Made by a program: the position numbers and the translations under genes
Part shown: positions 2,578 to 63,517 of the stretch, in pieces
Layout: each line of letters opens with the position of its first letter
Numbering within the stretch: position 1 is the stretch's first letter
Notes under the pieces: model-generated
What the model saw: only the letters and a program-made list of their open reading frames with translations
What the model was told of the DNA's origin: nothing
Databases searched by the model: none
Assembly: GCA_963771165.1 (NCBI GenBank)
Contig: CAVYSN010000021.1
Span: 264,502 to 328,501 of the forward strand
Direction of reading: 5' to 3'
Origin: an uncultured bacterium
GTDB lineage: Bacteria; Acidobacteriota; HRBIN11; JAKEFK01
Length of the DNA: 64,000 nucleotides

Positions 2578-3825
2578 TTACATAAGGGTGTCGAATGCAG
2601 GGTAAAAAACGGTATCATCCCGTTCGGGTGAAGTAGAAATCATTGCTACAGGCACTTTCAGAAATTCTTCAATGAATTCCAGATACTTTCGTGCGTTCAT
2701 CGGAAGATCTGCGAGCTTTCTCAATCCATATGTATTGCATTTCCAGCCGGGAAATGCACGAAAGACCGGTTTACAACCTTCGACATCATCGTTTGAAGCA
2801 GGGAATTCATGGAGTCTTTTACCATTCAATTCATATTCAATACAGACAGCGATCTCTTGAAATTCGTCAAGGATGTCGAGCTTCGTGATGCACAATGCGT
2901 CCATTGCATTGATCTGCGATGCATAATTCAGTGCCACAAGATCCAGCCAACCGCAACGGCGCGGCCTTCCTGTGACGGACCCGAATTCCTTTCCACGATT
3001 ACGGATCGTGTCACCGGTAGCATCTTTGAGTTCGGATGGAAATGGCCCACTCCCCACACGCGTCGCGTAAGCCTTCGATACCCCAAGGACTTTATGAACG
3101 TGCTTGGGGCCAATTCCAAGGCCGGTGCTGATTCCTCCCGCGGCGCAACTACTGGATGTCACAAACGGATACGTGCCATGATCGACATCCAGCATGGTTC
3201 CTTGCGCGCCTTCAAAGAGCAATCTTTTTTCTTTCCGGACCGCCTCCGCCATAAAAGAGGAACAGTTGCATACGTATTTGCCGATCTCATTTCGAAACTC
3301 CGGAATGCGCGCTAAAAAATCGTTTCCTTCAGGTTTATCCTTATAAATATCAAGCAAGCGTTCTTCAAAGTTGGATTGCATTAGATCGCTGATACGAAAA
3401 CCACGTCTGGCCGCCTTATCCTCATAAGCAGGACCGATGCCTCGTAATGTCGTTCCGATCTTTTGCGTTTTTTCTGCTTCCTGCTCCCGCCATCTATGAT
3501 GAGGAAGAATCAAGTGCGCTCGATCGCTGATGTTTAAACGGCCATCAAAAGTAAAGCCGGATCCTTCCATCCTTTTGATTTCGGCCAGCAGCGCGGCAAG
3601 TTCGATTACGACACCATTTCCGATCACTCCAATTTTTCCGCCCCGAAACATTCCGGAAGGAATCAACTGAAGAATGTGGCTTTTGCCTTCAATCACAACC
3701 GTGTGACCTGCATTGTGTCCTCCCTGATAACGGGCAACAATGTCGTAATGCAGCGAAACCAGATCTACAATTTTGCCTTTGCCCTCATCTCCCCATTGTG
3801 CGCCAACAACCGCTAAATTCGCCAT
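2578..3825 (-). CDS. purA: adenylosuccinate synthetase
   Basis: 415 aa, full length, with the N-terminal GAQWGDEGKGK P-loop. Confidence 0.95.
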   Translation of the reverse strand: MANLAVVGAQWGDEGKGKIVDLVSLHYDIVARYQGGHNAGHTVVIEGKSHILQLIPSGMFRGGKIGVIGNGVVIELAALLAEIKRMEGSGFTFDGRLNISDRAHLILPHHRWREQEAEKTQKIGTTLRGIGPAYEDKAARRGFRISDLMQSNFEERLLDIYKDKPEGNDFLARIPEFRNEIGKYVCNCSSFMAEAVRKEKRLLFEGAQGTMLDVDHGTYPFVTSSSCAAGGISTGLGIGPKHVHKVLGVSKAYATRVGSGPFPSELKDATGDTIRNRGKEFGSVTGRPRRCGWLDLVALNYASQINAMDALCITKLDILDEFQEIAVCIEYELNGKRLHEFPASNDDVEGCKPVFRAFPGWKCNTYGLRKLADLPMNARKYLEFIEEFLKVPVAMISTSPERDDTVFYPAFDTLM

Positions 3826-5552: not shown

Positions 5553-5638
5553 GATAATCGTAATCGTGATCTTGTTCTTGATCGTAATCATAATCATGCT
5601 CGATCAAGATTACGATCAAGGATCAAGATTACGATATT
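5553..5638. repeat. Family-H dyad of tandem hexamers (8x NTNATC then 6x GATNAN)
   Basis: ataatc gtaatc gtgatc ttgttc ttgatc gtaatc ataatc atgctc | gatcaa gattac gatcaa g gatcaa gattac gatatt. Located in the hutH/hutU divergent intergenic region. Confidence 0.85.
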
Positions 5639-9785: not shown

Positions 9786-9949
9786 TAGTATAGGTTCAAA
9801 CAGTCAAAGTTCAATGTTCAGGGGGGAAAGGTGATGTGTTCAGACGTTTGTGATAATCTTTTTAACAGAAGTTAGCAAAGGTAGCGAAGAATCTTTTATT
9901 TTCTTTATTTCCTTCGCTTTCTTCTGTTTAAATTTCTTTCGTTCAGCTC

Positions 9950-12052
9950 GTGGGGACCACTCGGTTGCAGAACAACCCGGCAAATGCTCGAAATCCCGTT
10001 ACAAGAGACGAGCGTCTATCGCAATTTTACCCGCTGATCCTCGAACTTCACGAAATGACAAGCTCCGGCAAGGTGCTGGACCGCATTCTTCAGTTTTGTC
10101 TGGAAGCACTGGATGCCAGTTACGGTTTGATCGCCCTGATCGATTACGAAAAAGAACTCCTGGATATACGCGCAAAAACGGAGCGCGATCTGATGCGAAA
10201 GACAACAAGAATTGCCTTGATGGAGCCGGTGTTCAAAAAAATCGCCTTCGATGCGCACTACGAAATGGTATCCGATTACTCCGATTCCTCCTTTCATCTA
10301 CCGTTTTATCGCGGAGCACGTTCGGCGGTTTATGTTCCGCTCGCGCTGCTGCAAACTGCAATCTCTGTGCAGAAAGGTCCGGGTGAAAACAAACCGGCAA
10401 CTCCCAACGTTGTTGGAATGCTGGTTGTAGAATCGAATAAACCGCGTGCATTTACAAAAGAGGATCTGGCATTCTTGCTTGCCCTCTGTTCTCAGTCCGC
10501 TTCCTTGATCAAAACCATCCAGCGTTTCGAGGCCTTGCAGAAAGAGAATCAGTTGCGCGATGAATTGACGGCAAAGATTCTCAAAATGGATCCCAAAGAA
10601 AGCCATCAACTGGATCAGTTGCTCAAAAACATCCTGGAACTGGCTTTTGAGCTGACGGATACAGCCCACGGTACCATCCTTTTGCTCGAAGAATCAACGG
10701 GTGATCTCATCATCAAACAACAGGCCAGCAAAGGAGATTTTCTGGATCGTCCACCAGCGAGACTTCATTACCAACCGGGACAGCGAAATGGAATTTCTTT
10801 CCAGGTTCTTAAAACCAGAACCCCTTATATCAGTCACGATGTATCGAAGGATCCGCATTACGTGCAAATCTTTAAGCATATTCAGTCGAATCTTGGAATA
10901 CCGATTATTTTTCAAGGCCGCGCGATCGGAGTTCTCCTCCTGGAATCCACCCGTTTGAATCACTTTCATCCGGGGTATCTGAAATCCCTTCAAAAGCTTG
11001 TCGATGAGATGGTCTTCTTCCTTCGTCGCGCCCAGCTCGGCGAATACATTCGCCAGAAAGGGGGTGAGATTACGATCATCGGCAAGAGCAAGATCATGGA
11101 AGAAGTGGATCATTTTGTCGAAAGCGTTGCTCAATCCGATTCCACCGTTCTACTTCTGGGCGAAAGCGGCGTTGGAAAAGAATTGATTGCGCACGCGGTT
11201 CATTTCAACAGCAAACGGCGAGATAAACCCTTTATCACAGTGAATTGCGGAGGCCTGACAGAGGAGATTCTTGCCAATGAACTCTTCGGACATGTGAAGG
11301 GATCTTTCACCGGTGCGATCCGCGATCAAATGGGAAAGTTTGAGCTGGCACATGAAGGAACACTTTTTTTGGATGAAGTAGCTGATATGAGTATGAAGCT
11401 TCAAACGCTTCTGTTGCGCGCCGTTCAGTATGGCGAAATTCAGAAAATCGGAGAGGATAAGCCGAATAAAAAAGTAAACGTCCGGATCATCTGTGCGACC
11501 AACCAGGATATGGAAAAAATGGTCAGCGCCGGCAAATTCCGTAAAGACCTCTACTACCGCATCAACGTCGTTCCGCTTTTCATTCCGCCGCTTCGCGAAC
11601 GGAAAGAAGACGTTCCGGTCCTTGTAAACTATTTTGTCGAAAAGATCTGTTTGCGGAATGAGCTTGCTGTAAAAAAAGTATCTCCTGATGCGATGAAAGC
11701 TTTACAGGATTACAACTGGCCCGGTAACGTACGGGAACTGGAGAATATAGTGGAGCGTGTTGTGATTCTGACTCGCGATCCCCTGATTCACGCAAGGCAT
11801 TTGCCACCCAATCTTGTTGGTCTGCCGATGCCGCTCGCTACGGAATCCAACGAGGCATCGCTCCAGGATAAACTCTCCACGATTGAATCCTATTTGATCC
11901 GTCAGTGTTTGGATGCACACGGCTGGAACGTATCCAACACGGCTCGCTCTTTAGGATTAACTCGCCAGGGATTGCAGAAAAAAATGCGCAAGCATGAGCT
12001 GAAAAAAGGACGCCCTGAATCTTATGGAGCGCATGCGTCCCGCCTGCATTAA
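9950..12052 (+). CDS. sigma54-dependent transcriptional activator (GAF-GAF-AAA+-HTH)
   Basis: GESGVGKE Walker A, GSFTGA loop, and a C-terminal Fis-type HTH (NTARSLGLTRQGLQKKM). The GTG start is uncertain. Confidence 0.9.
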   Translation: MGTTRLQNNPANARNPVTRDERLSQFYPLILELHEMTSSGKVLDRILQFCLEALDASYGLIALIDYEKELLDIRAKTERDLMRKTTRIALMEPVFKKIAFDAHYEMVSDYSDSSFHLPFYRGARSAVYVPLALLQTAISVQKGPGENKPATPNVVGMLVVESNKPRAFTKEDLAFLLALCSQSASLIKTIQRFEALQKENQLRDELTAKILKMDPKESHQLDQLLKNILELAFELTDTAHGTILLLEESTGDLIIKQQASKGDFLDRPPARLHYQPGQRNGISFQVLKTRTPYISHDVSKDPHYVQIFKHIQSNLGIPIIFQGRAIGVLLLESTRLNHFHPGYLKSLQKLVDEMVFFLRRAQLGEYIRQKGGEITIIGKSKIMEEVDHFVESVAQSDSTVLLLGESGVGKELIAHAVHFNSKRRDKPFITVNCGGLTEEILANELFGHVKGSFTGAIRDQMGKFELAHEGTLFLDEVADMSMKLQTLLLRAVQYGEIQKIGEDKPNKKVNVRIICATNQDMEKMVSAGKFRKDLYYRINVVPLFIPPLRERKEDVPVLVNYFVEKICLRNELAVKKVSPDAMKALQDYNWPGNVRELENIVERVVILTRDPLIHARHLPPNLVGLPMPLATESNEASLQDKLSTIESYLIRQCLDAHGWNVSNTARSLGLTRQGLQKKMRKHELKKGRPESYGAHASRLH

Positions 12053-12097: not shown

Positions 12098-14191
12098 GTG
12101 AATTTTTTGACACTCCCCTCCAGCATAGAAAATGCTCCCATGGTCAATGAGGCTCGCGGGAAGATTTTCCGCAATCATGGGATCCGCACGATCGAGGACC
12201 TGTTGTGGTATTTACCGTTTCGATATGAGGATTGGCGCCATCCAAAACAGATCAAGGAGCTTGTGGACGGAGAAGTTGCTACGATTGTTGGGACCGTCAC
12301 ACGCACGCATCTCCATCTGACATCGCGAAGAAACTTTAAGATTCTGGAAGTCACCATCCAGGACGGATCCGGTTCGATTCTCATTCGATTCTTCAACCAG
12401 CCTTACCTGAAGGAACAATTTGAAAAGGGCCGTAAAGTCGCCCTGCATGGGACGGTTCGGGTGGATCCTTTCGGTCATGACGCTGAAATGGAGAATCCTC
12501 AGCATGAAATTTTGAAGAAGGAGGATCTATCGGAGTATTTGCGGGTGCGGCCGGTTTACGAAAGGATTGTCAGCATTACTCCCAAAATGCTTCGATGGAT
12601 CATAAAAGGAAGTCTGGAGGCGATTCCGGCACAATCTTTTGGGGAACCACTTTCGGATGAGTTGCGCAAGAAGTACAAACTGGTCGATCGGAGAACCGCA
12701 TTCCTGCAGCTCCATTTTCCCTCTCCTGAAATTTCTCTCGACGATTTGCAGAATCGCAGATCGCAAGGGCATCGCCGCCTGATTTTTGAAGAATTTTTTC
12801 TGCTCGAAGTCGGACTTGCATACAAACAAAAAGAGCGTCCGAAAAAAAAACACAGCGTCCTGGTGGATAACCGGGTTCGTGAAAAAGTGCGCGCGGCTTT
12901 GCCGTTCAAGTTGACGGATGCTCAAAAACGGGTGATTCGCGAAATCGTCGAAGACATGAAAAAGGATCCTGTGATGTACAGGCTTCTCCAGGGGGATGTC
13001 GGAAGCGGCAAAACGATCATCGCCTTGATGGCCTCCATTGTGGCAATGGAAAACGGATTTCAGGCCGCGTTCATGGTGCCGACCGAGCTTCTCGCGGAGC
13101 AGCACTTCAGCAACATTTCCTACCTACTACGTAATACTAGCTATATAGTACGTCTTTTAGTCGGAGGGCAATCCAAGAAAAATCGCGTTCAGTATCTGGA
13201 AGAGATCGCGAACGGGGAATGTCCGCTCGTGATCGGCACGCATGCGCTGATTCAGGATCCCGTAAAATTCAAAAGTCTGGGACTTGTGATTGTCGATGAA
13301 CAGCATCGTTTTGGTGTTTTGCAGAGGGAGGCTTTGGTCAAGAAAGGGGAGAATCCGGACTGTCTGATCATGACGGCCACCCCCATTCCTCGATCCCTTG
13401 CTTTAACCGTTTACGGCGATCTCGAAACATCGATTTTGGATGAGCTGCCGCCGGGGAGGAAGCCGATTTTGACTCGCAAATGGCCGTTGAAGAAGAAAGC
13501 GGAGCTATATCATCAGATCGCCGCCGCCGTACGAAAAGGGCAGCAAGCATACGTCCTTTGTCCGCTTATAGAAGAATCGGAAAAGCTTCAGCTTTCTGCA
13601 GCAGAGAAGCTGGCTGATGAGTTACGACGCTCATTCTCGGATCTTTCGATTGGATTGATTCATGGGGGTATTCCGGCCCGTGAGCGGGAGGTGATCATGC
13701 GAAATTTCCTGGACAAAAAAATTCAGATGCTGGTTGCCACTACTGTGATCGAAGTCGGCATTGATGTGGCGAACGCGTGCATTATGGTGATTGAGCATGC
13801 GGAAAGATTCGGTCTGTCTCAGTTGCACCAGCTGCGGGGGCGTGTCGGACGAGGGAGAGATCAGTCTTATTGTTATTTGCTGATTCCGGCGGAATCCGAT
13901 CTGACAGAGGAAGCAAAAATGCGGATCGATGCAATGATTGCAACGGACAATGGATTCAAAATTGCTGAGACGGATCTGAAAATTCGTGGCCCCGGGGAAC
14001 TCACCGGCACAAGACAATCCGGTTTGCCAACCTTCCGGATCGGAAATCTATTGCTGGATCAGAAGATTCTAGAAATTGCTCGAAAGGAAGCTTTTCATTA
14101 CATCGATACTTATCGCCAGAACCCTGAAGTCCTGAGAAACTTTTTCCAAAAATACTGGAACAACCGCTTCGGTCTCATCCAGGTCGGTTAG
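12098..14191 (+). CDS. recG: ATP-dependent DNA helicase RecG
   Basis: 697 aa with GDVGSGKT and DEQHRFG helicase motifs and an N-terminal wedge region. Confidence 0.93.
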   Translation: MNFLTLPSSIENAPMVNEARGKIFRNHGIRTIEDLLWYLPFRYEDWRHPKQIKELVDGEVATIVGTVTRTHLHLTSRRNFKILEVTIQDGSGSILIRFFNQPYLKEQFEKGRKVALHGTVRVDPFGHDAEMENPQHEILKKEDLSEYLRVRPVYERIVSITPKMLRWIIKGSLEAIPAQSFGEPLSDELRKKYKLVDRRTAFLQLHFPSPEISLDDLQNRRSQGHRRLIFEEFFLLEVGLAYKQKERPKKKHSVLVDNRVREKVRAALPFKLTDAQKRVIREIVEDMKKDPVMYRLLQGDVGSGKTIIALMASIVAMENGFQAAFMVPTELLAEQHFSNISYLLRNTSYIVRLLVGGQSKKNRVQYLEEIANGECPLVIGTHALIQDPVKFKSLGLVIVDEQHRFGVLQREALVKKGENPDCLIMTATPIPRSLALTVYGDLETSILDELPPGRKPILTRKWPLKKKAELYHQIAAAVRKGQQAYVLCPLIEESEKLQLSAAEKLADELRRSFSDLSIGLIHGGIPAREREVIMRNFLDKKIQMLVATTVIEVGIDVANACIMVIEHAERFGLSQLHQLRGRVGRGRDQSYCYLLIPAESDLTEEAKMRIDAMIATDNGFKIAETDLKIRGPGELTGTRQSGLPTFRIGNLLLDQKILEIARKEAFHYIDTYRQNPEVLRNFFQKYWNNRFGLIQVG

Positions 14192-14276
14192 CTCTTAACA
14201 CAGAGACACGGAGACGCAGAGTTTAAGAAAAGGATTCTGATTTTTCTCTGTGCCCTGTGTCTCTGTGTTAACGAGC
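14191..14276. repeat. Family-C hairpin repeat (octamer units ACACAGAG/ACGCAGAG)
   Basis: acacagag acacggag acgcagag ... ctctgtgc cctgtgt ctctgtgt. Starts at the last base of the recG stop codon. Confidence 0.85.
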
Positions 14277-14338
14277 TACCGGTCGTTTGTGTGAATTGCG
14301 CCTCCAAATCGAATGGCGTATATTCACGTGAGAGTGAA

Positions 14339-16378: not shown

Positions 16379-17039
16379 ATGCCGATTCGCGTTCAACTCT
16401 TCGCTGCATTCGCAGACTTTACCGGAAAACGGGAGATTGAATGGGAATACAGTCCCGGATTAACGTGTGAATATTTGTGGAAGGATCTCCAAATTCAGTA
16501 TCCTCGCGTGGCTCGCATTCCGGCGCTTTTTGCCATAGAGAATGAGTACGTTCCACCGGGCACAGAACTGAAGGACGGGGACTCTTTGATGATTTTTCCG
16601 CCCGTGAGCGGCGGGGCCGTTTCCTGTATCTATGAAGCGGCTTTATCTGTGGAGCGCGCGCTGGAAGCCATCCGTGATGAAAATGGCGGCGGAGAAGCAG
16701 TTTTTATCGGACGCGTAAGAAGGTGGAGCGAAGGGAAAGAAAATACGTCACCTTTTTTACGAATGTCATGTTGCAATGGCAGATAATGAAATTCACAGGA
16801 TCATCGGCGAAATGAAGCAGCGATGGCCACTTTGACAGGTCCATGTCGAACATCGAATTGGAAAGTTGGAAGTTGGAGATATTGCTGTCATAGTTGCCGT
16901 TTCTGCTGAACATCGAAAGGAAGCGATGGAAGCATGCCGTTATGGTATCGATGAGTTGAAACATCGCGTGCCGATCTGGAAGAAAGAAGTTTCCGAAGAC
17001 GGCGAAGAATGGATAGGAGCCTGCGATTATAAGTCATGA
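16379..17039 (+). pseudogene. fused molybdopterin synthase MoaD-MoaE (MoaX-like), disrupted by one frameshift and one in-frame TGA
   Basis: The MoaD part ends in PPVSGG and runs directly into MoaE. There is a +1 frame change in gggaaagaaaat (~16736-16744) and a TGA at 16833-16835 inside RWPL*QVHVEHRIG. The remainder (EHRKEAMEACRYGIDELKHRVPIWKKE) is conserved. Confidence 0.75.
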
Positions 17040-17099
17040 GCAATGAGTCATGGGCAATAAGACCAAACTGACACGGTCTCATGACTCATTGCTCATTGC
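17033..17099. repeat. Family-A hairpin repeat
   Basis: tcatgag caatgag tcatggg caataag acc ... ggt ctcatga ctcattg ctcattg. It contains the moaE stop codon (17037-17039). Confidence 0.85.
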
Positions 17100-17112
17100 T
17101 CCGGCACTGATT

Positions 17113-29404: not shown

Positions 29405-29468
29405 GTCATGAGCAAGGAGTTATGAGACCTGTATTGGTTTCTCATTGCTCGTGACTCATTGCTCATTG
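29405..29468. repeat. Family-A hairpin repeat
   Basis: gtcatgagcaaggagttatgagacc ... gtttctcattgctcgtgactcattgctcattg, just upstream of the rpsU RBS. Confidence 0.8.
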
Positions 29469-29692: not shown

Positions 29693-29721
29693 TTCATTTT
29701 TCACGAATCCAACATCGATTT

Positions 29722-29790
29722 CACCGCAGAGGACGCAGAGAACGCAGGGGGAAAATTACATTGCTCTGCGATCTCAGCGGACTCCGCGGT
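29722..29790. repeat. Family-C-like hairpin repeat (9-nt units CGCAGAGGA/CGCAGAGAA)
   Basis: accgcagaggacgcagagaacgcagg ... ctctgcgatctcagcggactccgcggt, between rpsU and icd. Confidence 0.75.
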
Positions 29791-29810
29791 AAGATAACTC
29801 GAGGTGAAAT

Positions 29811-46855: not shown

Positions 46856-46956
46856 GCGTCCTCACATCATAACACACGTGGGGACGAACTTGTGTCTCTC
46901 TCCTTTCATCGGATTTCATTGCTCAAACTGTGCGACTCCTGTATCTTAATGGCTAT

Positions 46957-49317
46957 ATGGATGAGACTGCTGTTATTACGGCTGGCGTCCCTGCCGGAAG
47001 GAAGAAAGTCTTTAAAAATGTTCTGATCACGCTTCTGTATTTCTTCAGCATTTCGATTGGGTCTCTCTTTGGCTTTTTCCTATCTTATTTGAATCGGCTC
47101 CCGCAGGTGGAACAAAGCGAAACGTTTCGGCCCAATGTCCCGGGCCAGGTTTATTCTTCCGATGGAAAACTCATTGAGGAGTTTGCTGTTGAGAAAAGGA
47201 TTTTGCTCCGTTCGATTGACGAAATCTCGCCGTATTTAAAGAATGCTGTGATTGCAGTGGAAGACGCCCATTTCTATCAGCACCCGGGTGTCGATCCGTG
47301 GGGAATTCTGCGCGCGTTGTATGTGAACTTAAAGACCGGACGTGTCGTGGAAGGTGGAAGTACGCTTACTCAACAACTGGCAAAATTGCTGTTTCTCAGG
47401 CCGGAAAAGACAATGGAACGGAAGATCCAGGAAGCCATGTTGGCCGTCCAACTGGAACGCAGGTATACAAAAGACGAAGTGTTTCTTCTCTATGCAAATC
47501 AAATTTATCTTGGGCATGGGATTTACGGTATTCAAGCCGCATCAAACTACTACTACGGTAAGTCCGCTAAAGAATTGAATCTGGAAGAAGCCGCCTTGAT
47601 CGCTGCGCTGCCCAAAGCGCCTGAGAACTTTTCACCTTATACTCATCCGGAACAGGCGATGAAGCGAAGAAACCATGTTCTTGAGAGGATGGCCGAAGAA
47701 AAGTTTATTTCCAAGCAGGACGCAGAAGAGGCCAAAACGAAGCCTTTATCGGTGAAAACCGTTGTCCCTAAAATTTCTGTGGCCCCTTACTTTACAGAGG
47801 AGATTCGGAAATACCTCGAAACGAAATATGGATTTTCGGGAATCTATGAGAGTGGTCTCCAAATTTACTCAACCCTCGTTCCGGAAATGCAAGTTGCTGC
47901 AGAGAAGGCTTTGGACAAAGGTGTGCGAGCATTGGATAAACGGCGCGGATTCCGGAAAATAACTACGACAGTGAAGGAGCAGGAAATAGAGAATTTTCGA
48001 TCACCGGATTGGTCTAAGTCGTTTGAACCCGGAATGATCGTGCGGGGGGTCGTCACGGAGGTAACTCCGAAGCGCGTTACGGTGAAGATTGGAAAGGAGA
48101 CGGTGAATCTTTTCCCGGAAGGTTGGGGCTGGACCGGCAGGAAAGACGCTGCATCGATTTTTGTGCGGGGCACCGTTACAGATTTTAAAATTCGGGGAAT
48201 GGAAAATGGCAAGATTCAATCGATTTCGGTGGATCAGGCGCCGATTGTTGATGGGGCCCTGGTTGCGATGGATATTAAGACGGGAAAGATCCAGGCGTTG
48301 ATCGGAGGATCCGATTTCGGAACCAAGAAGTTCGATCGTGCAACCCAGGCTTACCGCCAAACAGGATCCGCTTTTAAACCTTTCATTTATGCAGCAGCCT
48401 TTGAACGTGGATTCACTCCATCGGATGTGATGGTTGACGCTCCTTTGTCCTATTATGACGCCTGGTCAAAGAAAACATGGTCACCGCAAAATTATACCGG
48501 CGATTTCCTGGGTCCCATGACTTTGCGTCGAGCCCTGGAACTCTCAAGAAATACGATTGCAGTAAGACTTTTGGAGCAAATCGGCGTGAAATATGCAATT
48601 CGTTACATCGATAATTTTGAAGTAGCCAATAATATGCAGCCCTATTTGCCTCTTGCGTTAGGGGCCAGCGAAGCCACATTAATCGGCATGGTGCGAGCGT
48701 TTGGCGCTTTTTCCAACCAGGGCCTCATGATGCGTCCCTATCTGGTGGAAAAGGTTTTGGATCGCGATGGAAATCTACTGGAACAAAATCTCCCTTCAGC
48801 AAAAGAGGTTATGCGTGCAGATGTGGCCTATCTAATGACGGATGTGTTACAGGGGGTCATCAGGCGTGGCACGGCGGTGAAGGCGAAGAAGTTGAAAAGG
48901 CCCTTAGCCGGGAAAACAGGGACCACCGACGATTGCACGGACGCATGGTTCATCGGCTACACTCCGAGCCTCGTTGTGGGTGTGTGGGTTGGTTACGACG
49001 AAAAGAAATCCCTGGGTAAGAAGGAAACCGGAGCTGAGGCTGCGTTGCCGATTTGGATCGATTTTATGGAAGTGGTTCTCAAAGATAAGCCGGTTGAAGA
49101 ATTTCAGGCCACTTCAAACATTGTAACGATTGCTATCGATCGCCATTCAGGCCTTCGCGCAACACCAGACTGTACAGACGTTATCCTGGAATCCTTTGTT
49201 GCCGGAACGGAACCTAAACAGTATTGCGGTCCCGAACACCATGGGGAAATCCCGCTTCAGCCTGAGGAGCGAGAATCCATGCAAATCGTCACCCCCCCAC
49301 CCGAAGAACAGAATTAA
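46957..49317 (+). CDS. mrcA: class A penicillin-binding protein 1A (transglycosylase + transpeptidase)
   Basis: EDAHFYQH and GGSTLTQQ glycosyltransferase motifs; SAFKP and KTGTT transpeptidase motifs. A GTG at 46930 is an alternative start. Confidence 0.9.
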   Translation: MDETAVITAGVPAGRKKVFKNVLITLLYFFSISIGSLFGFFLSYLNRLPQVEQSETFRPNVPGQVYSSDGKLIEEFAVEKRILLRSIDEISPYLKNAVIAVEDAHFYQHPGVDPWGILRALYVNLKTGRVVEGGSTLTQQLAKLLFLRPEKTMERKIQEAMLAVQLERRYTKDEVFLLYANQIYLGHGIYGIQAASNYYYGKSAKELNLEEAALIAALPKAPENFSPYTHPEQAMKRRNHVLERMAEEKFISKQDAEEAKTKPLSVKTVVPKISVAPYFTEEIRKYLETKYGFSGIYESGLQIYSTLVPEMQVAAEKALDKGVRALDKRRGFRKITTTVKEQEIENFRSPDWSKSFEPGMIVRGVVTEVTPKRVTVKIGKETVNLFPEGWGWTGRKDAASIFVRGTVTDFKIRGMENGKIQSISVDQAPIVDGALVAMDIKTGKIQALIGGSDFGTKKFDRATQAYRQTGSAFKPFIYAAAFERGFTPSDVMVDAPLSYYDAWSKKTWSPQNYTGDFLGPMTLRRALELSRNTIAVRLLEQIGVKYAIRYIDNFEVANNMQPYLPLALGASEATLIGMVRAFGAFSNQGLMMRPYLVEKVLDRDGNLLEQNLPSAKEVMRADVAYLMTDVLQGVIRRGTAVKAKKLKRPLAGKTGTTDDCTDAWFIGYTPSLVVGVWVGYDEKKSLGKKETGAEAALPIWIDFMEVVLKDKPVEEFQATSNIVTIAIDRHSGLRATPDCTDVILESFVAGTEPKQYCGPEHHGEIPLQPEERESMQIVTPPPEEQN

Positions 49318-49377
49318 CGCAAAAACGCAAAGAAAAGCAATGATTTTCGCTTTGCGGGCTTTGCGATATTGCGTTAA
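49314..49377. repeat. Family-B hairpin repeat (octamer units ACGCAAAG / CTTTGCGT)
   Basis: ttaacgcaaaaacgcaaag ... ctttgcgggctttgcgatattgcgttaa. It contains the PBP1A TAA stop (49315-49317). Confidence 0.85.
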
Positions 49378-49419
49378 ACAGCTAGCGTTTTTTCTTTTTG
49401 GCTGGTTTCGCTTTCTTCT

Positions 49420-50695: not shown

Positions 50696-50726
50696 TGACG
50701 CCAAGAGCTTAGTGTCTTGGCGGTCA
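50696..50726. repeat. Family-D short hairpin
   Basis: tgacgccaaga ... tcttggcggtca, between convergent stops. Confidence 0.6.
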
Positions 50727-54737: not shown

Positions 54738-55556
54738 ATGAATCGCCAACCTGCTGTAGCCGGTTATTTTTATGCCGGTGAAAAGCACCGTTTGGAACAA
54801 GAATTAAATCGACTTCTCCCTGCCGGCAAACAAAAAACCAGGGCGACCGCTGTTGTCGTACCGCACGCCGGATACATGTACTCCGGGATCGGTTGCGGGC
54901 GAAGTCTACGGGTCGATTGAGCTTCCGGACAGTTTCATTATTCTATGTCCCAATCATACCGGACAGGGAAGCGATTTTGATTTATGGCCCGAAGGGGAAT
55001 GGATAACGCCGTTAGGCGCAGCGCATGTCGATTCGGAGTTATGTTCTGAATTGATGCGCTATTTTCCGCGCGCTGTTGCGGACGGACGGGCACATCTCAA
55101 AGAGCATTCACTCGAAGTGCAGCTTCCGTTTCTACAGATCCTGAAAGGAGAGATCTCCTTTGTGCCGCTCTGCATTCGTCAACGCAACTATCGAATATCT
55201 GGAAGAACTGGGGCAAGCGATTGCAAAAATGATCTCCGGTTCGGCGCGACGAGATCTTGATTATCGCCAGCAGCGATATGACGCATTATGAAACGCAGGA
55301 ATCAGCGCATAAAAAAGACCATCTCGCGGTTCAACAAATGGAACAGCTGAATCCGCGTGGGTTGTACGATACGGTACACGAACATGAAATTTCTATGTGC
55401 GGATACTTACCTGCAACCGCCGCTATGATCGCTGCAAAAGAGCTTGGCTCGGCTTCCGGCCGCCTTGTGAAATACGCGACTTCCGGTGATGTGACGGGTG
55501 ATCATTCGAGTGTCGTCGGCTACGCCGGCCTGCTCTTTAACGCAAAGACGCCATGA
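54738..55556 (+). pseudogene. MEMO1/AmmeMemoRadiSam-system protein B family, 3 frameshifts
   Basis: PAVAGYFY, VVPHAGYMYSG and IASSDMTHYE motifs. Frame changes near 54888, 55172 and 55254. Confidence 0.78.
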
Positions 55557-55602
55557 CGCAATGATTAAGAATCTTCTTCTTTGCGTCTTTGCGTTAAAGA
55601 GC
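55533..55602. repeat. Family-B hairpin repeat
   Basis: acgcaaag acgccatg acgcaatg ... ctttgcgt ctttgcgt. It encodes the last residues and stop of the Memo-like gene and abuts the stop of the convergent gene. Confidence 0.85.
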
Positions 55603-57011
55603 TAAATTCCAAGGCGACGGTATTCGATGGCAGGACAGCGATTCATGATCACAATCAAGCCGGCGTCGAGGGCTTTTTGCGCAGCTTCTTCATGATAGAC
55701 ACCAAGCTGTGTCCAGAAAATCTTCGCTCCAATTTCAATTGCCTGATCGGCCACATCCGGTACAAATTCCGAACGACGGAACACATCGACCATGTCCACA
55801 GGGAAAGGAATCGAGCGCAGGTCTCTGTAACAGGGCACTCCCAGAATCTCCTTGTGTCCAGGATTGACTGGAACCACCAGATTCCCTCGCGTCATCAAAA
55901 GTTCGGCGATCCTGTTGCTGTCGCGATACTCTTTTGGGGAACATCCTACTACAGCGATAGTACGATCTTTTGATAATATTTCTCGGATGACGGAGTCGGG
56001 AGGATTTTGAAACATGATTCGCTGTAAAAGTTCAAGAGGATCTTTGACTTCTTTGCTATTACGATTATAGACGGGCGTAAGCCAGCTTTTATACTTCGGA
56101 ACGTTTCCGCGAACGGCTTCGAAGTAAACTTCCTGGATTTTTCCGGTGATCGGACCGATTTCACCGTTTCCGATCTTCCTTCGGTCGATGAAGCCAACTC
56201 CGGATATTTCAGCTCCTGTACCGCAAAGAAAAACTTCCTCCGAAGCGTAGAGCTCGCTGCGATTCATGGAGCGTTCTTCGACAACCAGCTTTTGATCTCT
56301 GGCAATTTCAAACACGATCGATCGAGTGATGCCTTCCAGCACGTTATCGTAGACAGGTGTGGTAATCAGTTTGCCGCCACGAACGATAAAAATGTTCATG
56401 CCGGCGGCTTCTGAAACGGTTCCATCTTCATTTAAAAGGATGGCTTCGTCGAATCCTCCTTCACGCGCTTCGGCTGCAGCCAGCGATACATTGACGTAAC
56501 TGCCGCTTACTTTTGCGCGCGGCGGAATCGCATTGTCCTGAATACGTCGCCAGGAGGAGACCATAAGGTTCAATGGTCGATCCTTTGTCAAGTACGACCC
56601 GATCGGTACCGCGAAAACAAGGAATTCATGCTCTTTGCCCCACTTCAAGCCGATTCTCTGGGCCGACTTGTAGACCATGGGACGAATGTAAACATCTTCC
56701 TTGTAGCCGCATTTCCGAATCAGTTCCACGGTAACGTCGGCTAGTTGCTGTGGTGTCTGTTCCATATCGATCATCAACAGGCGCCCGTTCGTTTTCATTC
56801 GGGCGTAGTGATCGATCACCCGGAGAATGTAAATGTCATCCTCTTTATCGTTGTAGTAACCGCGGATCCCTTCAAAAATGGCTGATCCATACAGAAAAGC
56901 ATGGGTCATGATGCTGATCTTTGCTTCTAAGAGCGGAACAAATTTGCCTTCAACAAATGCGTAAGCGTTTGCCAGTTCTTTTGAAGTTACAGCTTGATCG
57001 TGAGCATCCAT
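55602..57011 (-). CDS. ilvE: class-IV branched-chain amino-acid aminotransferase fused to a C-terminal CoA-binding (YccU-like) domain
   Basis: About 315 aa of IlvE-like sequence, a ~25-aa linker, then TIAVVGCSPKEYRDSN..VPVNP, all in one 469-aa ORF. Confidence 0.8.
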   Translation of the reverse strand: MDAHDQAVTSKELANAYAFVEGKFVPLLEAKISIMTHAFLYGSAIFEGIRGYYNDKEDDIYILRVIDHYARMKTNGRLLMIDMEQTPQQLADVTVELIRKCGYKEDVYIRPMVYKSAQRIGLKWGKEHEFLVFAVPIGSYLTKDRPLNLMVSSWRRIQDNAIPPRAKVSGSYVNVSLAAAEAREGGFDEAILLNEDGTVSEAAGMNIFIVRGGKLITTPVYDNVLEGITRSIVFEIARDQKLVVEERSMNRSELYASEEVFLCGTGAEISGVGFIDRRKIGNGEIGPITGKIQEVYFEAVRGNVPKYKSWLTPVYNRNSKEVKDPLELLQRIMFQNPPDSVIREILSKDRTIAVVGCSPKEYRDSNRIAELLMTRGNLVVPVNPGHKEILGVPCYRDLRSIPFPVDMVDVFRRSEFVPDVADQAIEIGAKIFWTQLGVYHEEAAQKALDAGLIVIMNRCPAIEYRRLGI

Positions 57012-60616: not shown

Positions 60617-62243
60617 GTGCTGCGTTTTGCATTGACCTGTGAACAGATTTCAAAGACAACAAGAAAGCTTGAGAAGGAAAAAATCCTTGCAGGTTATTTG
60701 CGCGAACTCGCAGACGAAGATCTGGCAATTGCCTGCTATCTTTATGACCGGTTATCCGTTCGCTTTAAAAGATCAAAGGGTAACGAACGTAGGCTATGCT
60801 GCAATCCGTGATGCCTTGGAAGACGTGGAGCGCGGCTCAACGGACAGGCTCGGCCCTCCTGCTGTTGCGAACAGGAGATCTTGGTTCAGCCATCGAAGAA
60901 TTATTTCAACAAAAGAAACGCGAGCCTGTCTCTGACCTTAAAACATGTTAGATCGTACTACGAGAAGCTTACTACAATTTCGAGTCAACGTGAAAAACGG
61001 GCCATTCTTAGCGAAATGCTTGTCGAGAGCCACACCTCTGGAGGCCAAAGTATTTGATCAAGGTTCTGGGGAACGGGATGAGGATCGGGCTGCAGGAAGG
61101 TCTGGTGGAATCATCGATCGCAAAGGCTTTCGAGCAGCCGCTTGCGAAAGTGCAGTATGCCAACATGTTGCTGGGAGATATCGGCGAAACCGCTATCCTT
61201 GCCCGCTATTCGCGCCTTGACGATGCGCGCATGAAGCTTCTTCATCCGATCAAGCCGATGCTGGCTTCCGTGGAGGAGGATCCGGAAAAGATCCTCGAAT
61301 CGATGGAAGCGCGTGGTTTGGCAGAAGACAAATATGACGGTATTCGCGCACAGGTCCACAAGGAAGATCAGGAGATAAAGATTTTTTCGCGCGATCTGGA
61401 CGATATCACTCATTCTTTTCCTGATGTTGTTGAGAAAATGATAACGCTCCCTCATTCCTTCTTGATGGATGGAGAAATTGTTCCCTACAAAGAGGAACGG
61501 ATTCTGAGTTTCGGCTCTGTTGCAAAATCGTCTTGGCAGGAAAGCGCTTTCCAGTGCAATGTTGGAGCAGATTCCATGTCGTTATTTCGCTTTTGATCTT
61601 GTTATTTCTGGATGAGAATCTGCTGATCGACTTGCCGCTTCAGGAAAGGCGTAATCAATTGTTCAGGCTTCAAAACCTGTATTCCGCGCCATTTTCAATT
61701 TCAGAACAGCGAACCATCCGGACGGTGGATGAACTCGAAGCCTGTTTTGACGCTTCAAGAGGCCGCAACAATGAGGGGCTTGTGATTAAGCATCCCGATT
61801 CGCCGTACAAGCCTGGAAAAAGGGGTAAACAATGGCTCAAGCTGAAACGTGCGCTTGTGACACTTGATGTGGTTGTTGTCGCCGCTGAATACGGGCATGG
61901 CAAACGGGCCGGACTTCTTTCCGATTACACATTCTCAGTGCAGCATCAGGGGAAACTTCTCACAATCGGGAAAGCGTATTCCGGAATTACGGACAAGGAA
62001 CTGTTTCAATTGTCGGAATTATTTCACAAAATTTCCATTCGTGATGAAGGATTCATGCATTTCGTGCCGCCGCAAGTTGTGTTCGAAGTCACTTTTGACA
62101 GAATCAATCGCAGTGATCGCCACACAAGCGGTTTTGCTTTGCGTTTTCCGCGAATTAAAAGCATTCGATGGGACAAAAAACCTGAAGAGATCGATACGCT
62201 TGAGACAGTGGAGAAGCTTTACCAAGCCCAGGAACAAAACTGA
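60617..62243 (+). pseudogene. ATP-dependent DNA ligase (Lig1/Cdc9-like), about 7 frameshifts
   Basis: Adenylation motif EDKYDGIRAQVH plus an OB-domain and conserved C-terminus. The segments sit in alternating frames, with junctions near 60744, 60830, 60933, 61020, 61050, 61516 and 61598. Confidence 0.8.
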
Positions 62244-62679: not shown

Positions 62680-62803
62680 AAATTTAACCCGCGCTAAGAA
62701 TATACAAAGCAGCGGCGTACTTCATGTCTCGCAGGTTGGAATCAGAATACCCAAGCTAGTGCAGCGGCAGGTCTAACTTAAGTTATAGAAAAATCTCTAA
62801 CCA

Positions 62804-62884
62804 GGCTTTAACGCAAAGACGCCACGACGCAAAGATTTTAAAAATATTATTTCTTTGCGGCGTTGCATCTTTGCGTTAAAGGGC
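62804..62884. repeat. Family-B hairpin repeat
   Basis: acgcaaag acgccacg acgcaaag ... ctttgcgg cgttgcat ctttgcgt. It abuts the stop of the LuxR-type regulator. Confidence 0.85.
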
Positions 62885-63517
62885 TATTCCAGGCGGACGA
62901 GGCCGCGTTTCAGGGCCACAGAAACGGCCTGAGTGCGGTCTGTGACGTTGAGTTTGGAAAGGATATTGTTGACATGGGATTTGACGGTGCCCTCGGATAT
63001 TCCGAGCTGATCTCCAATTTCCTTGTTGCTGTTGCCTTTCACTATCAGTTTCAGCACTTCAAATTCACGTGAGGTCAGCTCATTGCCGCCGACCCTTTCC
63101 GCTAAACGGGTGGCAACGTTGGGCAGGTATGCAGCGTTCGCCGTTATGCACTCGAAGGATTGCGGAGATCAATTCATTGCGTGGGGAATCTTTCAATAAG
63201 TAACCGCGGGCGCCGGCTTGAATGGCCTTATAGATATCTTCTTCGTGATCAAAACTGCTCAATATGATGATTCGTGCGTTCGTGAATTCATTTCGAATGC
63301 TTTCGATTGCCTGTGCGCCGCTCATGTCGGGCATTCGCATATCCATGAGGGTGATGTCGGGACGAACTTTGCGATACAACTGCATTGCTTCTTGTGCGGA
63401 TCCCGCTTCACCAACCAGTTCCATCTTTTTATCGGTGCTGATAATTCTAGCAATGCCTTCGCGAACGACGGGATGGTCGTCCACAATCATCACTCGTATC
63501 AGTTCGGATTTCGACAT
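62884..63517 (-). pseudogene. NarL/FixJ (LuxR-HTH) response regulator, one frameshift
   Basis: Receiver domain (track ORF 63080..63517) followed in another frame by ..[43 protein letters not shown]. Junction near 63130. Confidence 0.8.

Follow-up and report, generated by a model that had tools for sequence, protein, structure and literature searches.

Intergenic hairpins with periodic arms in an uncultured acidobacterium are probably gene-less relatives of stem-wrapped cassettes resembling rRNA intervening sequences

Introduction

What kind of element is the hairpin that fills the gap between two genes at positions 55532-55602 of a 64,000-nucleotide stretch of DNA from an uncultured acidobacterium, and how is it related to the other hairpins of that stretch whose arms are likewise built from tandem short units? 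The stretch, referred to below as the window, is C21:264502-328501 (contig CAVYSN010000021.1) of assembly GCA_963771165.1, here G000, which comprises 4.46 Mb in 22 contigs, has a G+C content of 49% and is 73% complete; a relative found by way of RecG places it among the Acidobacteriota. A first-pass annotation made from the letters of the window had assigned such hairpins to several sequence families (B, C and D, along with a heptamer family A and a hexamer family H) of one architecture, and had suggested to take a genome-wide census, to search for a repeat-mobilizing gene and to compare orthologous regions in relatives. The analysis presented here indicates that the hairpins are probably related to small cassettes in which periodic arms enclose a single gene, as they do in the intervening sequences (IVS) of 23S rRNA that carry an open reading frame (ORF).

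Results

Architecture of the hairpin at 55532-55602

The hairpin is composed of (i) a left arm (55532-55563) in which GCTCTTTA is followed by three 8-nucleotide (nt) units (55540-55563) reading ACGCAAAG ACGCCATG ACGCAATG, (ii) an AT-rich 15-nt loop (55564-55578), and (iii) a right arm (55579-55602) in which CTTTGCGT CTTTGCGT precedes TAAAGAGC, with two units facing the three on the left and GCTCTTTA/TAAAGAGC constituting the outer stem. Folded as RNA, 55528-55606 attains -35.7 kcal/mol (z -9.0 relative to shuffles). The hairpin occupies the whole gap between two convergent genes, namely the C-terminal part of a Memo-like gene (55257-55556, plus strand), the frame of which extends six codons into the left arm, and an aminotransferase-IV/CoA-binding gene (55602-57011, minus strand), the stop codon of which (55602-55604, CTA on the plus strand) includes the final base of the right arm. 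The Memo-like gene is present as two overlapping ORFs (54853-55260 and 55257-55556), reflecting either a frameshift or a sequencing error; in the relative G001 it terminates at a TAA within TTTTTTAAC, and the second ORF of the window stops within the hairpin arm and not at that TAA.

Two further family-B hairpins are located at 49314-49377 (copy 1, the hairpin at 55532-55602 being copy 2), where the PBP1A gene (46930-49317) ends, its TAA stop codon forming part of the terminal TTAAC, and at 62804-62884 (copy 3), which has 3+3 units. The corresponding RNA folds are -23.6 kcal/mol (z -3.8) for 49310-49381 and -37.4 kcal/mol (z -7.9) for 62800-62888.

One construction throughout the genome

An ungapped inverted-repeat scan (arms of at least 18 nt, loops of at most 45 nt), with a block-shuffled genome as control and arm periodicity scored by banded self-alignment, returned 277 loci in G000 and a single one in the shuffle. 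Periodic arms were found in 152 of the 277 (55%) and in none of the shuffled sequence, the score being reached by 1.3% of random genomic segments; the periodicity which the first-pass annotation had noticed in a few copies is hence well beyond chance. The arm pattern of family B alone matches 41 times, and not once when read backward as a control.

Families B, C and D turn out to be built from one unit, C-R-C-N-R-A-G plus a spacer of 1-3 nt, usually present three times per arm (modal count 3+3 units, median loop 21 nt). With the strict C-R-C-N-R-A-G expression, the purine-rich arm comes first in 110 hairpins and second in one, and among the periodic hairpins of G000 the purine-rich arm is 5' in 125 and 3' in three; since this order is unchanged by reverse complementation, it represents a true handedness. 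A consensus T-T-N-A-C stands ahead of the first unit and G-T-N-A-A behind the last one, and the loops are rich in A+T (74%, compared with 52% in intergenic DNA). According to our rough ORF scoring, which covers 82% of the genome, 145 of the 152 periodic hairpins are intergenic, located 5-7 nt from stop codons, and are distributed over co-directional (91), convergent (31) and divergent (23) gaps, for which the background counts are 1593, 383 and 494. Many unrelated unit sequences (7-mers, 8-mers and hexamers) exist side by side in this one genome.

When the loops of different copies were compared, only AT-rich low-complexity words were found in common and no near-identical copies were detected, so that nothing points to a recent burst. 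Likewise, the lengths of direct repeats at the hairpin boundaries, surveyed for a target-site duplication, are distributed close to the control, without a preferred length. Most of the non-periodic loci among the 277 belong to a separate family resembling repetitive extragenic palindromes (REPs), which is GTAG-headed (GTAGGGGCGCGATTCATCGCGCCC; GTAGGGGCGCGATTCATCGCGCCCGC, variant GTAGGGGCGGGTCTGAGACCCGCC) and comprises ~60 loci (e.g. C4:145369-145442 and C19:217423-218730). Also noted were kilobase-scale, nearly perfect inverted duplications at C16:95904-98600 and C21:402108-404474 (arms of up to 523 nt, 97-100% identity), which could be either real or fold-back artefacts of the assembly. C17:1-18000 gives many G+C-rich inverted-repeat matches and looks atypical in composition; this region might represent foreign DNA or result from a chimeric join.

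Gene-bearing cassettes with the same arms

A complete cassette measures ~430-480 bp and consists of two inverted arms, each of about three tandem short units, with one small gene between them. G000 has two GxxExxY genes (TIGR04256; PF13366, PDDEXK_3), and both lie between periodic arms: an intact gene encoding 122 amino acids (aa) at C4:152175-152606, with arms ACCGCGGAG TCACGGAG GTCACGGAG, and a frameshifted one at C14:259945-260383, the arms of which, TTTAACGCAGAG ACGCAGAG AGGCAGAG, are those of family B. GxxExxY genes occur in 44 of 121 Acidobacteriota genomes, and inverted repeats with a periodicity of 8-10 nt flank 14 of 25 full-length GxxExxY loci across the phylum. Genes for four-helix-bundle proteins (TIGR02436), which 65 of the 121 genomes possess, also have flanks of periodic inverted repeats at 16 of 25 loci, with a period of 7 nt at 12 of those 16; at control positions such repeats were found in 0 of 102 cases. 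Moreover, 35 of the genomes with the nuclease gene are rich in arms and nine are poor, compared with eight and 69 of those without it (Fisher p = 1.3e-14, Spearman 0.74; 121 genomes, kinship ignored).

Outside the phylum, named plasmid records of Bacteroides finegoldii and Bernardetia show the gene inside arms of the TTCACCACAGAGGAC and TTCACCACAGAGGACGCAGAGGACACGGAG type; a plasmid record of Gemmatirosa has a gene-less hairpin adjoining a GxxExxY gene, and in Sphingomonas a GxxExxY gene with one arm is located between fabD and fabG. The same components in another arrangement were noted in Prevotella nigrescens (L070) and Fusobacteria bacterium ZRK30 (L068), where direct instead of inverted repeats flank the gene; those of P. 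nigrescens contain tandem units of the ACAAATNG type. Most close GxxExxY homologues (P0002-P0120) were encountered on contigs of 0.5-2 kb, as is expected if metagenome assembly is interrupted by the repeated arms to either side of the gene.

The predicted structure of the GxxExxY protein has a pLDDT of 91.9, and its residues D66, E76 and K78 show no variation among 40 homologues. A search of solved structures with its sequence yielded no match, and PF13366 is given as 'unknown' in a survey of the PD-(D/E)XK superfamily (PMC3424549).

Units that change in concert

Within one hairpin, units are 79% alike at three variable positions, compared with 50% between hairpins, and none of 500 permutations reached that value. 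The likeness amounts to 0.79 for neighbours in the same arm, 0.785 for pairing partners and 0.785 for non-pairing units of opposite arms; the likeness is thus equal for pairing and non-pairing units, a uniformity not called for by base pairing alone. The units are thus homogenized within an element, and their period depends on the cargo. Their flavour in turn follows the genome rather than the site: doublets of the CACGAAG flavour number 42-83 in G003, G005 and G006, 30 in G004 and 0-2 in G000-G002, and the commonest gene-less flavour of G000, CACGGAG, is the one found in the arms around its single intact nuclease gene. The proposal of several families sharing an architecture therefore holds in so far as there is one construction; B, C and D themselves are better described as flavours of one unit that change in concert than as separate families.

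Orthologous sites in relatives

G001 and G002 belong to the same genus as G000 and share only ~74-80% DNA identity with it, a distance at which the boundaries of empty sites become fuzzy. Comparison of orthologous regions nonetheless revealed occupied and empty sites, gene-bearing and gene-less forms, and differences in cargo among relatives. At the site of copy 2, the ACGCAAAG units of G000 are replaced by ACACAGAG units with the same boundaries in G001, while G005 and G003, which represent another genus, have REP-like elements there. At the site of copy 1, ACGCAAAG units in G000 correspond to ACACAGAG units in G002 and to ACACAGAG arms with a loop insert of ~250 bp in G001, the boundary AAAATTAAC being common to all three genomes. 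At the site of copy 3, the family-B hairpin of G000 has no periodic counterpart in G002; an AT-flanked GTTGAC-AAA-GTCAAC hairpin that resembles a bidirectional terminator was observed there (L046, reverse strand 2084-2194).

Eleven cassette sites were taken from relatives, for four of which both flanks are present in G000 and two of which allowed a clean comparison. The gene-bearing cassette G003:C18, with CACGAAG arms, corresponds to a gene-less hairpin with the same type of arm at C7:~66375-66470 of G000, and the site of the G002:C400 cassette is empty in G000 (C1:~36290). Gene-bearing and gene-less forms thus share their arms and both occur at one orthologous site. The C4 site of G000 carries the nuclease gene within CACGGAG arms, as does that of G005 (nuclease orthologue, 56% aa identity; CACGGAG arms), whereas in G001 and G002 the same site carries a four-helix-bundle gene (TIGR02436, 73.8 bits; PF05635, 76.8 bits) within hexamer arms. 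At the C14 site, the frameshifted gene of G000 (CGCAGAG arms) is intact in G002 (71% aa identity, CGCAGAG) and G003 (50%, CACAGAG). Occupancy and cargo of a site hence differ between genomes.

REP-like elements of the GTAG-headed kind sit at periodic-hairpin sites in another genus (e.g. L039 2770-2850, G005). A second kind of small element with an inverted repeat of its own (GAACCGCAGAATGTCCAACAATCGATTTCAGAACCGTCGAAGT...) was seen within periodic-hairpin loops at L045 (G001, reverse strand 1260-1500) and L033 (G002, 11040-11108), and such loops apparently serve other elements as landing sites.

Other hairpins in the window

The sequences assigned to families B, C and D were all recovered where the first-pass annotation had placed them. 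The family-C hairpin at 14191-14276 (units ACACAGAG ACACGGAG ACGCAGAG; fold of 14187-14280, -48.9 kcal/mol, z -9.0) lies immediately 3' of the recG stop and is retained in a relative with 83% identical RecG (L001 2838-2925), and a hairpin of a flavour with 9-nt period (units ACCGCAGAG GACGCAGAG AACGCAGGG) is found at 29722-29790 (fold of 29718-29794, -39.9 kcal/mol, z -7.3). The family-D hairpin at 2484-2573, with CACCAAG and CGCCAAG units, ends 5 nt short of the stop of the minus-strand ORF 2578-3825 (fold of 2480-2577, -38.2 kcal/mol, z -5.1). All six periodic copies that were folded are far more stable than shuffles (z -3.8 to -9.0). The element at 50696-50726, formerly counted as a second family-D copy, is a short non-periodic hairpin of that flavour, with a single CGCCAAG unit per arm.

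The same construction recurs at 9860-9932 (period ~9 nt; ACAGAAG TTAGCAAAG GTAGCGAAG), in a gap that is divergent by our gene calls, and a periodic-arm hairpin with GTTCAAAG-type units is located at 34109-34181. Heptamer arms, with the 7-nt period typical of four-helix-bundle cassettes, are present at 17036-17101 (GAGCAAT/GAGTCAT, family A) and again at 29408-29466 (GAGCAAG/GAGTTAT), and hexamer arms at 5557-5620 (ATCGTA/ATCGTG, family H); arms like the latter enclose a four-helix-bundle gene in G002 (L075). All copies in the window lie between protein-coding ORFs and have arms of 19-36 nt with 75-100% complementarity and loops of 15-47 nt devoid of an ORF. An Rfam scan of the window at gathering thresholds yielded neither a family nor rRNA. 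Elsewhere in the window, domains of an ATP-dependent DNA ligase (PF01068, PF04679) were identified on ORF 61533-62243, and a second ORF in a different frame (61054-61596) overlaps it; the gene may be frameshifted.

Discussion

Our findings are best read as follows: the hairpins of families B, C and D represent the nuclease type of arm (8-10-nt units with the core C-R-C-N-R-A-G) minus the gene, and those of the heptamer and hexamer families the four-helix-bundle type (units mostly of 7 nt). The first-pass annotation had inferred one construction of common origin instead of ordinary terminators that arose independently, and this inference is upheld by the genome-wide occurrence of the hairpins, their fixed handedness and common termini, the lack of a U-tract (see below), their presence in divergent gaps and the arms shared with gene cassettes.

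As to mechanism, the repeated units may be phased sites to which the cassette protein binds. This protein retains the D-E-K catalytic residues and could make a DNA break that spreads or maintains the cassettes and, in trans, their gene-less copies. If the periodic arms paired in a shifted register, subsequent repair might then keep the units and both arms alike. Once transcribed, the long stem would presumably be cut by RNase III, in analogy to the IVS, and if the stem were removed from transcripts in this way an insertion between genes would cost the host little. The kinship of the hairpins with IVS-like stem-wrapped cassettes is by itself quite probable and well supported; that they belong, as members devoid of a gene, to a superfamily of such cassettes maintained in this manner is, with the mechanism included, at best somewhat probable.

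Several observations weigh against this view. No event of movement, cutting or binding was seen, the copies have no loop sequence in common and show no sign of recent copy-and-paste, and a target-site duplication is absent. Stable inheritance of the gene-bearing cassettes at their sites, seen across genera with 50-71% aa identity, fits a gene kept by the host as well as a selfish one. The association of gene and arms across genomes ignores phylogeny, and eight of the 77 genomes without the nuclease gene still have at least 10 arm matches (G082 has 113). G000, at 73% completeness, has one intact nuclease gene and at least 10 arm flavours. Finally, a fold search with the nuclease model gave only weak generic PD-(D/E)XK matches (E of at least 0.027), including lambda exonuclease, Cas4 SSO0001, a tRNA-splicing endonuclease and Hjc, from which no specific activity can be assigned.

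Could the hairpins instead be RNA elements selected by the host, that is, terminators, 3'-end stabilizers or RNase III sites kept for their structure, with the small genes being secondary invaders of the loops? Their intergenic position (145 of 152) 5-7 nt off stop codons, their very stable stems, the retention of the hairpin at the recG site, and the ordinary terminator-like hairpin that takes the place of copy 3 in G002 would all fit, as would the fact that IVS stems are substrates of RNase III (PMC4990558). The flanks, however, tell otherwise: TTTT occurs within 14 nt downstream of the stem in only 5 of 110 copies and AAAA in 37 of 110, and the T-run being located upstream, neither strand has the stem plus U-tract of an intrinsic terminator. 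Divergent gaps hold 23 of the 145 intergenic copies, close to their background share of 20% by our rough gene calls, so that the hairpins are not excluded from such gaps. Flank composition and divergent-gap copies together rule out the canonical intrinsic terminator, and G000 does possess canonical terminators with GC stem and T-run, which are used next to the hairpins, one of them directly beside the C4 cassette. Selection on structure, which the first-pass annotation had offered as an alternative, finds no support at the RNA level: in co-directional gaps, G-U mismatches on the sense strand do not exceed A-C mismatches (74 vs 92, p = 0.19), so that selection on the sense-strand RNA fold is not visible and can be dismissed as far as this test reaches. 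In addition, non-pairing units are homogenized like pairing ones, beyond what structure alone requires, and the arm period varies with the cargo. Taken together, we regard this explanation as unlikely.

Also improbable, and to a similar degree, is that the palindromes grow and become homogenized in place through replication slippage and hairpin-templated repair, involving neither a dedicated enzyme nor movement, and that cassette genes merely favour such palindromes for landing. Such a process would account for loops that are AT-rich at their centres (74% AT) and unrelated between copies, for the missing target-site duplication, for the strong homogenization inside an element, and for a repeat number that differs among Coxiella strains (PMC4990558). 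It would leave unexplained that Acidobacteriota and Bacteroidota share a conserved unit core and conserved termini (TTNAC, C-R-C-R-G-A-G), that purine-first hairpins outnumber the reverse order by 110 to 1, that flavour tracks the genome at orthologous sites, and that arm abundance correlates with gene presence. The three phased identical short sites per strand, with their fixed spacing and conserved handedness, might be taken for an array bound by a host protein that acts on DNA or RNA (nucleoid-associated or regulatory) and is unconnected to the cassette genes; yet a candidate for such a protein was not identified, one genome contains many unrelated units side by side, and the arms are physically linked to cassette genes across phyla, which makes this account very unlikely. 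Least credible of all are REP/REPIN-type repeats mobilized by RAYT, an IS200/IS605-like Y1 transposase. The hairpins are indeed high-copy short intergenic palindromes, the GTAG-headed REP-like family coexists with them in G000, and REP-like elements take their place at the sites of copies 1 and 2 in another genus. The periodic hairpins are headed by TTNAC, however, and not by the GT[AG]G or CGTC given for REPs in PMC3733652, and the genes between their arms encode a nuclease-fold protein and a four-helix bundle instead of a Y1 transposase. The search for a gene of the RAYT/TnpA-REP type, one of the checks suggested at the outset, gave no match to Y1_Tnp (PF01797) in the 73% complete G000 and was positive in six control genomes; on this ground the reading was dropped.

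Returning to the kinship with stem-wrapped cassettes, a much bolder generalization, to which we assign little probability, would be that GxxExxY and four-helix-bundle cassettes, the classical 23S IVS included, form one pan-bacterial class of autonomous elements of ~450 bp, smaller than any known insertion sequence. The arm units would then be phased sites for the element's own protein, spaced according to the cargo (7 nt with a four-helix bundle and 8-10 nt with a nuclease), the gene-less hairpins would be non-autonomous copies, and the flavours would co-evolve genome-wide with the resident protein, homogenized by register-shifted hairpin repair.

The locus unites abundant intergenic hairpins, both gene families and IVS in one architecture. 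To our knowledge, where ORF-bearing rRNA intervening sequences come from and what they do has been an open question since about 1990, and we know of no role of the very large GxxExxY (PF13366) and four-helix-bundle (PF05635) families outside accessory proteins of retroelements. The proposed scheme makes concrete predictions: phased units of 7-10 nt should be bound or cut by the small protein, the stems should be cleaved by RNase III, and flavour should track the resident protein. In practical terms, the cassettes break metagenome assemblies, most nuclease homologues being found on contigs of <2 kb, and the hairpins, which can extend neighbouring genes or supply their stop codons, are relevant to annotation.

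Comparison with known systems

REP, BIME and REPIN elements, with their RAYTs, resemble the hairpins in being short, imperfect, high-copy intergenic palindromes that sit tight on gene ends and are favoured landing sites for other elements. The hairpins differ from them in that they lack a GTAG/CGTC head, have internally periodic arms, are associated with other gene families and occur in an assembly without a RAYT gene. As in miniature inverted-repeat transposable elements, gene-less copies share terminal inverted arms with longer gene-bearing units, and both forms are found at one orthologous site; unlike these, the hairpins have neither a target-site duplication nor a common internal sequence, and no known transposase is encoded by the cargo gene. 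Rickettsia palindromic elements (RPEs) are likewise selfish-looking palindromes tolerated at or in gene ends, as seen here for the Memo-like ORF and the PBP1A stop; RPEs are not known to have periodic arms or a gene-bearing form. The cyanobacterial STRR heptamers and heptamer hairpins are reportedly tandem intergenic heptanucleotides, often arranged as inverted pairs, that serve as insertion sites for very small repeats; they share with our hairpins the tandem short units in intergenic DNA and their inverted pairing.

The closest named family of the hairpins is the ORF-bearing 23S rRNA intervening sequence of the Coxiella burnetii/Leptospira type. Our literature search turned up no account of periodic arms as a general feature, of a link to GxxExxY or of gene-less intergenic copies, and the sole parallel found for periodic arms is the description of the Coxiella IVS. 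This IVS is 428 nt long with a 28-bp terminal stem, and three tandem GACAGAT heptamers precede the start codon of its gene for S23p, a four-helix-bundle protein; the number of repeats varies among strains, and RNase III cleaves at the first one (PMC4990558). The window copies differ in that (i) their loops carry no ORF, (ii) they are located between protein-coding genes and not in a helix of 23S rRNA, (iii) their arm type goes with the GxxExxY nuclease-fold cargo, and (iv) the hairpins amount to hundreds of copies per genome. As ORF and rRNA location are two defining features of an IVS, we term the window copies gene-less relatives and not IVS. Their gene-bearing relatives, by comparison, are ~430 nt long with terminal inverted repeats that form a stem of ~28 bp. 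Within the stem, short direct repeats stand in tandem and the purine-rich arm is 5', with three 8-9-nt units here and three GACAGAT heptamers in Coxiella. The loop of the IVS accommodates a single ORF of the four-helix-bundle family (PF05635/TIGR02436), a gene family that in Acidobacteriota is wrapped by periodic arms at intergenic sites, and the 7-nt period of Coxiella is the very period found for the four-helix-bundle cassettes.

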